NCBI GenBank assembly: GCA_963711835.1
Contig: CAVQFQ010000017.1
Coordinates: forward strand, 320,001-384,000
Source of the DNA: an uncultured delta proteobacterium
GTDB taxonomy: Bacteria; Desulfobacterota; RBG-13-43-22
Length of the DNA stretch: 64,000 nucleotides
Reading direction: 5' to 3'
In this document: positions 11,717 through 50,530 of the stretch, in pieces
Numbering within the stretch: position 1 is the first letter of the stretch
Layout: the number at the start of each line of letters is the position of its first letter
Translations under genes and position numbers: made by a program
The notes under the pieces: generated by a model
The model's database searches: none
The model's input: only the letters and a program-made list of their open reading frames with translations
Told to the model about the DNA's origin: nothing

Positions 11717-11789
11717 AATCAACAAATTTTTAACTCGACTCCCGAAGATTGTCAATAAAAAAAATAGGGGACGTTGGTGCAGAAAGTGC

Positions 11790-11818
11790 TTGACTAAGTT
11801 GGACTTTAACGTTACTAT
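11790..11818 (+). promoter_or_regulatory. Sigma70-like promoter of the RAYT gene (probably leaderless)
   Basis: TTGACT-17 nt-TACTAT, ending 7 nt before ATG 11826; no SD sequence. Confidence 0.6.
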
Positions 11819-11825
11819 ATACATT

Positions 11826-12815
11826 ATGCCCAGATCAGCACGATTAGATGCGCCGGGGGTGTTGCACCATGTAATCGGACGTGGAATTGAGGGGAGACCC
11901 ATCTTTCCCTCCGGTAAGGATGGGGAGGACTTTATTTCTCGTCTATCCGCTCTGGTTGATACGCAGGCCATGGACGTTTACGCCTGGGCTTTATTGCCTA
12001 ACCATTTTCATCTTCTCTGCAAAACTAAACACAAACCATTGGCCTGGAGTATGCGCAAGCTTCTCACCGGCTATGCCGTCAATTTTAATAAAAGATATAA
12101 AAGGCAGGGGCATCTATTCCAGAATCGTTATAAATCCATCGTCTGCCAGGAAGAAGCCTATTTATTGGAGCTGGTCCGGTATATTCATCTGAATCCTTTG
12201 CGGGCGCGACTGGTTGATCGCCTGCATGAATTGAACTATTATCCCTGGTCGGGGCATTCCGCCCTGTTAGGGCGAAGAAACAGACCGTGGCAGGATATTA
12301 ATTATGTTCTTGGCTATTTTGGAAAAGGAAATATCGGCCCTAAAAAATACCTGCAATTCATTAAAGAAGGAATGGTTCAAGGCAAAAGGCCTGATTTAGT
12401 CGGAGGGGGTCTTATCCGCAGTTCGGGGGGATGGTCCGAGGTCTTAAGTCTCAGAAAACGGGGAGAGAAGGAAGCCAGTGATCAGAGAATCTTGGGTGAG
12501 GGAGATTTTGTGGAAAAGGTTTTATCCGAAGCCACCAATTTTCAGAAGGAGGTTTTGGGCCTGAACAAGAAAAAATTGGATCTGCCTAATTTGGCTTCAA
12601 GGATTAGCGCTCGGCAGGGGATTTCTCTGGATGAACTTCTATCCGCCAGCCTCAGAAAGGAGATCGTCGAAGCCCGCCGGGTTTTGGCTTGGCTTGCAGT
12701 AAAGGTCTTGAGGTACTCCGGGGCGGAAGTCGCCCGCTACCTGGGCGTAACGAGTTCCTGTATAAATCGGTCCCTGTCCAGGGGAGATAGTCCCAAGCAG
12801 GAAGAATACTTATGA
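11826..12815 (+). CDS. REP-associated tyrosine transposase (RAYT / Y1_Tnp) with C-terminal HTH-like extension
   Basis: MPRSARLDAPGVLHHVIGRG, HUH motif in PNHFHLL, GHLFQNRYKS and RYIHLNPLRA (catalytic Tyr). Confidence 0.9.
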   Translation: MPRSARLDAPGVLHHVIGRGIEGRPIFPSGKDGEDFISRLSALVDTQAMDVYAWALLPNHFHLLCKTKHKPLAWSMRKLLTGYAVNFNKRYKRQGHLFQNRYKSIVCQEEAYLLELVRYIHLNPLRARLVDRLHELNYYPWSGHSALLGRRNRPWQDINYVLGYFGKGNIGPKKYLQFIKEGMVQGKRPDLVGGGLIRSSGGWSEVLSLRKRGEKEASDQRILGEGDFVEKVLSEATNFQKEVLGLNKKKLDLPNLASRISARQGISLDELLSASLRKEIVEARRVLAWLAVKVLRYSGAEVARYLGVTSSCINRSLSRGDSPKQEEYL

Positions 12816-14551
12816 GCCTGGAAGCAATCCCTGCACCAACGTCCCCTAAATTGGTGGGCCTTAATTTGGGGTTGGTTCCTTTTAGGGAGGCCTGGGAGTT
12901 GCAGAAAGAATGGGCGGCGCAGCGGCGGGAGGGGACATTGCCGGACGGATTGATTCTGCTGGAACATCCGCCGGTCTTGACCCTGGGCCGGTGGGGGAAA
13001 AAGGAAAATCTTAAGGTCTCGGCCGATTATTTAAAGCAGAAAAACATGGCTCTGATCCGCTGCGAACGGGGAGGAGAGATCACCTACCATGGTCCGGGAC
13101 AGTTGGTGGGCTACCCCATCTTGAGGTTGCAGTCATTCCAGCTCGGCGTCAGGACCTATGTCAGCCGTCTGGAGGAAGTCCTGATCAACACCCTGTTTGA
13201 TTTTGGTCTGGTCGCCGGTCGCCGGGAAGGATTTCCGGGTGTCTGGATCAACCAGCATAAGATCGCTTCTATCGGGATTGCCGTCCAAAAGGGCATTGCT
13301 TTTCATGGCTTTGCCCTGAACTACGCCCCTGATTTGGACCACTTCCGCCTCATCACCCCGTGCGGCTTGCCGGGTGTTGAAATGACCTCCATAGAAGCCA
13401 TGACCGGCAGACCCTTAGACCCTCATTATTTAAGGGAACGGGTGACCCGCAATTTCGGAGAGGTCTTCGGGGCTGAAATAGTCCCGGTAAGCCTTGAGGC
13501 TTTAAATCTGGAAACTGTGTCGCAATTACCAAAACGTCATTCCGGACGAGATCCGGAATCCATCCCGCCGAAGGCGGGACTGGATCCCGGCTCCCTTGGC
13601 CGGGATGACGAATTAAGACGCAGTCTTCAGCTAAAAAAGCCCCTCTGGCTCAAAAAAAAGATCCCTTCGGCAGGTTCCAGCGCCCAGGTCAAGGCCCTGA
13701 TCCGGAAGGGCGGGCTGCATACCGTTTGCCGGGAAGCCCAGTGCCCCAATCAGGGGGAATGTTTCAGCCGGGGAACGGCCGCCTTTCTGCTCATGGGAGA
13801 CCGCTGTACGCGCTGCTGTACTTTCTGTGCCGTGTCGCCCGGCCTTCCGAACCCATTAAACCCGGATGAACCGGCAGAGATCGCCCGGGCCGTAAAGAAG
13901 ATGGGGCTTTCCTATGCGGTCCTGACCTCGGTCACCCGGGACGATCTGTCTGACGGCGGGGCCGGCCATTTTTGTGAAACCATCGAGGCTATCGGCCGGA
14001 TCGTGCCTCAAACACAGGTCGAATGTCTCATCCCCGACTTCCAGGGATCGAAATCGTCCCTGGATCTGGTAGCCCGGACCGATCCGGCTGTCATCAATCA
14101 TAACCTGGAAACCGTGGAGCGTCTCTATCCCTCGGTGCGGCCAGGAGCGGATTTCAAACGCTCCCTCCAACTTATCGGATATCTCAAAGAAACTTTTCCC
14201 GGGCTATTGACCAAATCAGGGATTATGGTAGGATTGGGAGAGACCCGGGAGGAGACCAGGAGGGTCTTGGAGGATCTCCGGGATCAGGGCTGCGCCATCC
14301 TGACCATCGGCCAGTATCTGCAGCCTTCTCCAAAACATCATCCGGTAGTGCGATATGTTCCTCCCGATGAATTTGCAGGATGGGAGGAAGAGGCCTGCCA
14401 ACTGGGCTTTAAAGCCGTGGCCTGCGGTCCTTTTGTTCGCAGCTCCTTTGAGGCCGAAGGCCTTTATGCCAAGGCGGGGTCCAGCCCGCCCCGGCGGATC
14501 GGCGACCCCTCCCCCATCGGGGAGGAGAAAATATTTTGTTGCCTATCCTGA
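12812..14551 (+). CDS. lipB-lipA: Fused octanoyltransferase LipB - lipoyl synthase LipA
   Basis: N-half: LEHPPVLTLG, RGGEITYHGPGQLVGYPI, KIASIG, HGFALN, PCG. C-half: CREAQCPNQGEC, CTRCCTFC, NHNLETV, GQYLQPS, VRSS. Confidence 0.92.
   Translation: MSLEAIPAPTSPKLVGLNLGLVPFREAWELQKEWAAQRREGTLPDGLILLEHPPVLTLGRWGKKENLKVSADYLKQKNMALIRCERGGEITYHGPGQLVGYPILRLQSFQLGVRTYVSRLEEVLINTLFDFGLVAGRREGFPGVWINQHKIASIGIAVQKGIAFHGFALNYAPDLDHFRLITPCGLPGVEMTSIEAMTGRPLDPHYLRERVTRNFGEVFGAEIVPVSLEALNLETVSQLPKRHSGRDPESIPPKAGLDPGSLGRDDELRRSLQLKKPLWLKKKIPSAGSSAQVKALIRKGGLHTVCREAQCPNQGECFSRGTAAFLLMGDRCTRCCTFCAVSPGLPNPLNPDEPAEIARAVKKMGLSYAVLTSVTRDDLSDGGAGHFCETIEAIGRIVPQTQVECLIPDFQGSKSSLDLVARTDPAVINHNLETVERLYPSVRPGADFKRSLQLIGYLKETFPGLLTKSGIMVGLGETREETRRVLEDLRDQGCAILTIGQYLQPSPKHHPVVRYVPPDEFAGWEEEACQLGFKAVACGPFVRSSFEAEGLYAKAGSSPPRRIGDPSPIGEEKIFCCLS
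13508..13630. mobile_element. 123-bp MITE-like element with a CGTC-REP pair, in frame within the LipB-LipA linker
   Basis: Outer imperfect IR CTGGAAACTGTGTCGCAATT / AATTAAGACGCAGTCTTCAG; inner CGTCATTCCGG..CCGGAATCCA and CTGGATCCCGG..CCGGGATGACG. Confidence 0.75.
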
Positions 14552-17673: not shown

Positions 17674-17817
17674 TAGTGTAGTGTCTCAGACAAGTCTTTA
17701 CAACGTCTTAAAGAGCAGTCATTCCCGCGGAAGCGGGAATCCAGAAATAAAAAAACTGGATTCCGGGTCAAGCCCGGAATGACGGCACTGTAAAGCCATT
17801 ACGGAGACACTACATTA
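17674..17817. mobile_element. MITE-like element carrying a CGTC-REP pair
   Basis: Outer IR TGTAGTGTCTC-8nt-CTTTACA / TGTAAAG-8nt-GAGACACTACA. Inner GTCATTCCCGCGGAAGCGGGAATCCAG (17718-17744) and CTGGATTCCGGGTCAAGCCCGGAATGACG (17756-17784). Confidence 0.75.
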
Positions 17818-24725: not shown

Positions 24726-25145
24726 CCCATTAGGCCTAACTTAAGAGCCGAGGGTTTCTCTGACGTCATTCCGGCGAAAGCCGGAATCCAGGGAGCCACC
24801 AGTGAATAAACAACCAGTGGTATATATTCTGGCAAGTAAAAGAAATGGAACTCTTTATATTGGTGTGACTTCAGATCTTGTCAAAAGGGTATGGGAGCAC
24901 AAAAACAATATGGTTGAAGGGTTTACCAAACGCTATGGTGTCCATCAGTTGGTTTGGTATGAATTGCACGAGGGCATGGGATCGGCTATTCAGCGGGAGA
25001 AGCAACTGAAAGAATGGAAGCGCAAGTGGAAACTTGAATTAATTGAGGGTGCCAATCGAAATTGGCAGGATTTGTATTATTTGATTGTCTGACTGGATTC
25101 CGGCTTTCGCCGGAATGACGCTACGCCTAAGTTAGCGCTTATGGG
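24726..25145 (+). mobile_element. 420-bp element: outer TIRs + perfect CGTC-REP inverted pair + GIY-YIG nuclease gene
   Basis: Inner 28/28 IR at 24764-24791 / 25093-25120; outer 16/20 IR at 24726-24745 / 25126-25145. Confidence 0.75.
24802..25092 (+). CDS. Stand-alone GIY-YIG nuclease family protein
   Basis: VYILAS..TLYIGVTSDLVKRVWEH..FTKRY..AIQREKQLK..N: GIY/YIG, Arg and Glu retained. GTG start with GGAG upstream. Confidence 0.9.
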   Translation: MNKQPVVYILASKRNGTLYIGVTSDLVKRVWEHKNNMVEGFTKRYGVHQLVWYELHEGMGSAIQREKQLKEWKRKWKLELIEGANRNWQDLYYLIV

Positions 25146-43960: not shown

Positions 43961-44098
43961 TTGATGGATTCGTAAAAAGTCACCAAAGCCGTCACCCCGG
44001 CGAAAGCCGGGGTCCAGAACTACGTGAATTTACTGGATTCCCGTTTTCACGGGAATGACGTAAATGGGCTTTCGATGATTTTTTCTGCAACGTTTAGG
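43961..44098. mobile_element. MITE-like element carrying a CGTC-REP pair, with mismatched (chimeric) ends
   Basis: REP pair at 43990-44060. The left 21 bp are identical to 50393-50413; the right end resembles the reverse complement of 52402-52427. Confidence 0.7.
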
Positions 44099-50392: not shown

Positions 50393-50530
50393 TTGATGGA
50401 TTCGTAAAAAGTCGCTGAAAGCTCATTTTTGTCATCCCCGTGAAAACGGGAATCCAGTATTTTTAATTAGTTACACATGGCTTGGATTCCCGCCTGCGCG
50501 GGAATGACGACTTTTTACGAACTTGTCTAA
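50393..50530. mobile_element. MITE-like element carrying a CGTC-REP pair
   Basis: Perfect 14-bp IR TTCGTAAAAAGTCG / CGACTTTTTACGAA enclosing GTCATCCCCGTGAAAACGGGAATCCAG..TGGATTCCCGCCTGCGCGGGAATGACG. Confidence 0.8.

Follow-up and report, generated by a model that had tools for sequence, protein, structure and literature searches.

On the forward strand of the window, by which is meant the whole 64,000-nucleotide stretch of DNA that was analysed, lies an open reading frame (ORF) in which a LipB-type octanoyltransferase is fused to a LipA-type lipoyl synthase (Table 1). Pfam places a LipB-type catalytic domain at residues 25-215, LIAS_N at 270-311, and a radical SAM domain at 328-489; the NCBIfam lipB and lipA models both score above cut-off; and solved LipB and LipA chains match residues 13-225 and 270-558, respectively. 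Invariant across 85 aligned homologs are K150, C184, C306/C311/C317, C332/C336/C339, and R543-S544-S545, which I take to be the catalytic motifs of LipB and LipA. Both motif sets, that is, are intact and in a single frame. The NCBIfam model for LplA-LipA fusions gives this ORF 378 of 800 bits, i.e., below threshold. Those homologs of the fusion family that are named are Thermodesulfobacteriota or Desulfobacca, a group to which the host probably belongs as well.

Fusions with this same domain order, annotated for example as 'lipoate-protein ligase B/lipoate synthase', are widespread in unrelated phyla, and their linkers are highly variable, spanning 76-162 residues from PCG to the first LipA cysteine. 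A literature search found no study of the LipB-LipA fusion in the passages that it covered. Many LipB homologs (P0163-P0259) are fused instead to a PF00293 domain, presumably NUDIX. Unlike other LipB-LipA fusions, the one described here has a linker which consists of mobile-element DNA. An AlphaFold model built from 85 sequences (pTM 0.60) gives pLDDT mostly above 90 for the two domains and below 50 for residues 243-268, a low value to which the shallow alignment in the linker also contributes. The linker is predicted to be a disordered, flexible tether joining two independently folding enzymes. The source genome, 89% complete and with 6.4% contamination, also holds a second, separate lipA and lipB pair (G000:C11:72472-74198), which is of another lineage and shares 54% and 45% identity with the two halves of the fusion. 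Because that pair is present, selective constraint on the fusion copy may be relaxed.

The earlier note on this DNA had described a 123-bp, 41-codon stretch of the LipB-LipA linker as a MITE/REP cassette read in frame. That stretch (13508-13630) does lie in frame between the intact LipB and LipA domains, its translation is exactly the one quoted, and the open frame suggests that it is indeed translated. Placement precisely between LipB end and LipA start holds insofar as the limits are where identity to the closest relative found, P0004, breaks off and resumes (N232, 41 residues, L274), though an L and a K precede the KPLWL motif. Outer inverted repeats also are present, with refined limits, but their match is incomplete: without gaps, 14 of their first 20 positions pair. 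The element proper is 117 bp or 39 codons (13511-13627) and is flanked by CTG and CAG. These triplets can be read as a 3-bp target duplication in which one base has changed, or else as the inverted repeats reaching 3 bp further out. Three layers are nested within one another: a central 7-bp hairpin, two CGTC-REP units, and the terminal repeats. In the right half of the element only the frame that is used remains open, with frames +1 and +2 running into stops. As DNA, positions 13490-13650 fold with -41.3 kcal/mol (z -5.9); as RNA the element forms a single long hairpin of -66.6 kcal/mol (z -9.0), which none of 200 shuffles equalled.

Table 1. Features of the fusion ORF and of the element in its linker (positions in the window)
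Feature	Position	Strand	Remarks
LipB-LipA fusion ORF	12812..14551	+	579 aa; octanoyltransferase 1-232, linker 233-273, lipoyl synthase 274-558
Left flank triplet CTG	13508..13510	+	not in P0004 allele
Left terminal inverted repeat, IS1182-type	13511..13527	+	one difference from phylum consensus (A13513G), not common to related strains
CGTC-REP unit 1	13535..13562	+	CGTC, 8-bp stem, 5-nt loop, CCA tail; definition from PMC3733652
Central micro-hairpin	13563..13579	.	7-bp stem, GAA loop; motif recurs elsewhere in genome
CGTC-REP unit 2	13581..13610	-	CGTC, 8-bp stem, 7-nt loop, CCA tail
Right terminal inverted repeat	13611..13627	-	three differences from consensus
Right flank triplet CAG (Q273)	13628..13630	+	different linker meets LipA at exactly 13631 in other strains

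Just upstream of the fusion is a Y1/RAYT-like transposase gene (11826-12815), which has a C-terminal DnaA-like helix-turn-helix and lies between two 18-bp inverted repeats that match perfectly (11765-11782 and 12831-12848; together 11765-12848). Its stop overlaps the predicted fusion ATG. As the right 18-bp repeat encodes fusion residues 7-12, and as P0002-P0004 share the fusion N-terminus, the end of a second element may be translated there as well, or instead the true start may lie downstream. A link between the linker element and this neighbouring gene was considered and rejected, as the gene has its own, different terminal repeats and falls below the NCBIfam RAYT cut-off.

Terminal repeats, REP units and their wider families

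At 117 bp, with 17-bp terminal inverted repeats (TIRs) and with no transposase inside, the element has the dimensions by which MITEs are defined (TIRs of 15-30 bp, lengths of 70-300 bp). Its terminal-repeat pattern was found in 31 of 301 genomes of the phylum, against none with the reversed control, and the source genome has one further full copy (on C21) as well as several partial copies. Across the phylum 40 repeat-bounded elements were recovered, 37 of them shorter than 300 bp. A 3-bp duplication flanks 22 of these 37, versus 3, 2 and 1 for duplications of 2, 4 and 5 bp. Among the 35 elements with full flanks 21 are duplicated, and 17 of those 21 sites fall inside a stem of at least 6 bp, compared with 2.6% of 2000 positions drawn at random. 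The targets can be seen to be CGTC REPs or members of a second, C-rich/G-rich palindrome family. Interiors differ greatly between copies, with REP dimers a frequent cargo. An autonomous element with the same ends also exists in a related genome (L131; G216:C107:12-1712): it is 1701 bp long, has a TTT duplication, and encodes a 512-aa IS1182 transposase scoring 343 bits against NF033551 (cut-off 270). The family loci are L101-L150, and one genome, G014, has 21 matches to the family's ends.

Since copies across the phylum mostly display 3-bp target duplications and sit within hairpin loops, and since a same-ended autonomous IS1182-family element exists, the linker element is assigned, by sequence, to the MITEs of IS1182 type. 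The cassette of the earlier note, that is, has been traced through its ends to a mobile family. An IS1182-type MITE family that apparently inserts into the loops of REP hairpins, often with a REP dimer as cargo, is in itself a phylum-wide by-product of this analysis; no description of the family or of this locus was found in a literature search that covered few subscription papers.

The linker copy is less tidy. Its CTG/CAG flanks differ by one mismatch, i.e., there is no perfect target duplication, and no empty-site allele was found. A hairpin rebuilt for the empty site folds better than shuffles (1.5%), yet 16% of 211 ORF windows fold as well, and it was dropped as support for targeted insertion for that reason. 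In the 89%-complete genome no intact cognate transposase was found, none with the G216 protein and otherwise only sub-cut-off fragments at a contig end. A pattern scan of genome contigs for left end plus REP start gave 0 matches.

Both REP units conform to type, having a CGTC end, an 8-9-bp stem that starts with AT, and a CCA tail, and by the definitions of PMC3733652 they form a head-head heterodimer. Their loops are of 5 and 7 nt versus the 4-5 nt of the definition, to which PMC3733652 allows exceptions. REPs are dispersed in the genome, with 45 of 78 loose pattern hits surviving a hairpin filter, some of them by chance. Of a stricter set of 38 units (33 found by pattern and 5 added manually), 35 are not embedded in an open frame to a depth of at least 40 codons, the exceptions being the linker pair and one match on C6. 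Further intergenic CGTC-REP units or dimers are seen in the window at 17718-17783, 44034-44059 and 50431-50508, several within other outer inverted repeats. About 11 kb from the element is what looks to be an Ssn-like cassette (24764-25120), in which a 96-aa GIY-YIG gene (24802-25092) has exact SRM/CGTC-REP units on both sides; a similar arrangement occurs at G000:C17:662888-663241.

Fused and split relatives of the junction

The earlier note had raised the possibility that the insertion created the fusion, and had proposed aligning the locus with the LipB-LipA loci of relatives. So aligned, relatives are found both fused and split, with highly variable linkers, and fused ones that lack the element exist. 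Creation of the fusion by the element is not borne out, as element-free fused homologs are seen in P0004 and in four genomes of the family. Leaving the linker aside, P0004 has 98% identity (228 of 232 and 113 of 115 residues). Between the same N232 and L274 it has an unrelated linker of 78 aa in which no trace of the element is seen at the protein level, and part of which matches the genome's second palindrome family (tblastn E 3e-4). Because P0004 stops at 425 aa, inside LipA, its function is uncertain, and it may be non-functional. In contigs from two other samples (X4, X5), both of which hold the element allele too, a P0004-like linker end meets LipA at exactly 13631.

Ten family genomes have the orthologous group. 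Four are fused without REP motifs (G010, G014, G018, G019) and six are split (G015, G005, G004, G007, G009, G001); set outside this comparison were G002, which a contig end interrupts, as well as G008, G016, G017 and G020, which are of other lineages. Arrays of 7-bp tandem repeats occupy the lipB-lipA junction in 5 of 5 sister-genus genomes (periodicity 0.86-1.0, versus 0.33-0.57 in five others). In G015 the split falls inside one of these arrays, whereas the four other sister-genus genomes are fused (L031-L034, L040), which suggests that 7-bp repeat number sets the frame there, though an assembly error in G015 may also account for the difference. In G009 and G001 (L038, L039) a CGTC-REP cassette with different outer ends sits in the lipB-lipA intergenic spacer, judged by those ends an independent arrival at the orthologous junction. 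Relatives from metagenomes, 21 loci, were all distant (48-65%), and none were used.

In a concatenated FastTree phylogeny of 43 rows, rooted at the midpoint and without a clade test, this lineage falls together with the sister group, most of which is fused (support 0.95), and P0004 sits inside the element-bearing alleles (0.99). The protein rows of that tree had been picked by length and hence are biased towards fusions. In a LipB-only tree, whose deep support is weak, stand-alone LipBs of the sister group nest among fused ones. The fused state is labile, that is, and the parsimony argument for an ancestral fusion is weakened as a consequence. No stand-alone LipB of this lineage was found among proteins of 150-478 aa, where split forms would rank first, and only P0004 exceeded 61% identity among the best 120 listed. 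Cluster members of P0001-P0004 likewise included no split forms; both are absences from a clustered library and fall short of proof. Residues 195-300, searched against proteins shorter than 318 aa, were uninformative, as 0 of 86 candidates scored.

An insertion that created the fusion here would have removed or bypassed a lipB stop and a lipA start, with element-free fused alleles arising later by replacement or else independently. Neither a stop nor a start remnant is seen beside the element, as that would lead one to expect, and the nesting of P0004, the six split genomes of ten, and the interleaving of split and fused forms in the sister group all fit as well. Standing against these points, an element-free linker is joined to LipA at one and the same base, 13631, on two or more backgrounds (P0004 and the loose ends of X4 and X5), and 4 of 5 genomes of the sister genus are fused and lack the element, a grouping supported at 0.95 under a midpoint root with no clade test. 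A fusion-creating insertion is unlikely on balance, and the fusion probably predates the element, as far as these sequences go. The element may then have replaced an older linker or, just as well, simply inserted into a short, pre-existing junction, and the order of alleles calls for recombination under any reading.

Alleles of the junction and their reading frames

Contigs of 8 of 22 runs from other samples were compared with the locus, and the figures here are from among the matches listed. One X2 contig (record 20; 13295-13560) spans the left junction with 2 other letters and a 20-nt insert, and shorter left-junction contigs of X3, X4, X5 and X19 have a 1-nt insert. X2 and X6 contigs (records 22; 13592-13760 and 13592-13742) span the right junction with 2 and 1 other letters. 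None of the matches listed for these eight runs covers the whole element. A single RNA-library contig, of a related strain, also crosses the left junction, weakly, as its short side is only 30 letters. Four independently assembled proteins that are 91-94% identical outside the linker (P0002, P0003, P0121, P0122) have 56-aa versions of the element, in frame. Because contigs of other samples span both junctions, and because independent proteins hold longer, frame-compensated versions, misassembly is unlikely, and the stop codon or misassembly for which the earlier note had advised looking was not encountered.

How these longer versions stay in frame emerges when their peptides are set against the element's three frames. 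P0002 follows frames 0, +1 and 0, and P0003 follows frames 0, +2, +1 and 0, changes which match the +1 and +20 nt insertions of the contigs (indels of P0002-P0004 being deduced from peptides plus contig indels). That both P0002 and P0003 should be in frame has a chance of about one in nine, in a set first gathered by a length-limited search. Three allele types hold the reading frame despite indels that are not triplets, and it would seem that out-of-frame alleles are selected against in this lineage. Changes in the flanks are enriched in synonymous codons (16 of 27, 11 of 19, 5 of 9, and 6 of 13, versus 0.24 expected; p 1e-4, 0.002, 0.045 and 0.07, for mixed strains, among matches listed and with no transition correction). 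P0005, like P0004, is truncated in LipA.

A different reading would have the element kept for a function, its mRNA hairpin pausing ribosomes or directing RNA cleavage between the LipB and LipA domains, or its REP hairpins being cut by an Ssn-type nuclease so as to form a recombination hot spot. The stability of the RNA hairpin (about -67 kcal/mol) is consistent with this, as are the nearby GIY-YIG gene with its exact SRMs and the presence of several junction alleles within single samples. Each REP unit moreover is one substitution from the published SRM motif, though by the same token neither is an exact SRM, the exact pattern having 0 matches in the element. Linker sequence and length vary even at 98% identity, the interior of the element is freely remodelled while its terminal repeats decay, and element-free alleles are variable as well, all of which makes such retention for function improbable. 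Very improbable is that the element is an assembly artefact or a decaying pseudogene with an open frame by chance, as might be thought from the contamination, the second lipA/lipB pair, the lack among the matches listed of an other-run contig spanning the whole element, and the truncations of P0004 and P0005, for against this stand the X2 and X6 junction contigs, the four independently assembled in-frame proteins, the intact catalytic residues, and the synonymous excess.

A likely passenger in a hypervariable linker

The likely reading of the locus is that the fusion is older than the element and labile, that its linker is hypervariable and collects repeats, and that the element rides there as a tolerated passenger. 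An IS1182-type transposase would have delivered the MITE to the junction, either by simple insertion into a short junction or by a swap for an older linker. Simple insertion would keep the frame, as 117 plus 3 bp amounts to 40 codons. Micro-hairpin insertions would later have remodelled the interior, those observed preserving the frame, with out-of-frame alleles presumably removed by selection in this lineage. The peptide would serve as the disordered tether that is predicted between the two enzymes, and the junction, given the unrelated repeats found in relatives, may be a sink under low constraint, with recombination exchanging its alleles. One may go further and suppose that the lipB-lipA junction is a repeat-driven fusion-fission ‘switch’, with MITEs, REP dimers and 7-bp arrays setting whether one protein or two are made and Ssn-type cutting of REP hairpins driving exchange of linker alleles within populations, though that is doubtful.

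In-frame palindromic repeats have been described for Rickettsia as well as for CGTC and GTAG REPs, dimers included (PMC3733652, PMC10969869). Rickettsia palindromic elements (RPEs; Ogata et al. 2000, 2002, as summarised in PMC10969869 and PMC3733652) have many intragenic copies with a conserved peptide, RPE-4 and RPE-6 being CGTC repeats. Like an RPE, as presented in those summaries, the linker element is a palindromic repeat of similar size inserted in frame into a conserved metabolic gene. In contrast to RPEs, of the 38 REP units here only the linker pair, plus the one C6 match, lies deep in an ORF, and the peptide frame differs between alleles. The element works like an RPE, that is, but is not classed as one.

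CGTC-tagged REPs, also when intragenic, can be read in frame, and Di Nocera, De Gregorio and Rocco (2013, PMC3733652) suggest that an insert of this kind is neutral where it falls in a linker or a loop. The likeness extends to the CGTC, 8-bp stem, loop and CCA tail, to head-head heterodimers with a structured spacer, and to the reading in frame. What differs is that the dimer here is cargo of a TIR-bounded MITE, that one loop is of 7 nt versus the 4-5 described, and that the insertion is at the junction of a fusion, where several alleles occur. The present phylum is not named among those listed in that paper, with 0 hits for ‘Desulf’ in the text available.

With respect to insertion, IS1272 is described, in the portion of PMC5678879 consulted, as targeting stem-loops, which it replaces without duplication. 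The likenesses to IS1182/IS1272 are the terminal repeats, which match those of the NF033551 element, the stem-loop targets, and the loop duplication, which is pathway c of the model in that paper. Unlike IS1272, this MITE family leaves a 3-bp duplication in the loop in most cases, and REP dimers are a frequent cargo; the linker copy itself is without a clean duplication and without a clear target hairpin. IS1272 is taken here to be a member of the IS1182 family. As for the NTS/SRM repeats of Ssn GIY-YIG nucleases (Chenal et al. 2025, PMC11893778, seen in part), the hairpin type is the same and an Ssn-like gene with exact SRMs lies in the window, but the linker units, each one base off the SRM, are candidate sites by sequence alone.

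The principle of in-frame REP or MITE insertion is already established with Rickettsia RPEs and intragenic CGTC REPs, and the surprise to a specialist is thus modest. The locus is, however, a clean natural case of mobile DNA which, if translated as its open frame suggests, has been turned into protein. It also allows comparison of several alleles of one junction, namely the element, its longer frameshift-rescued versions, an unrelated repeat linker, and split genes, with the consequence that both the tolerance of the linker and the origin of the fusion are directly testable.
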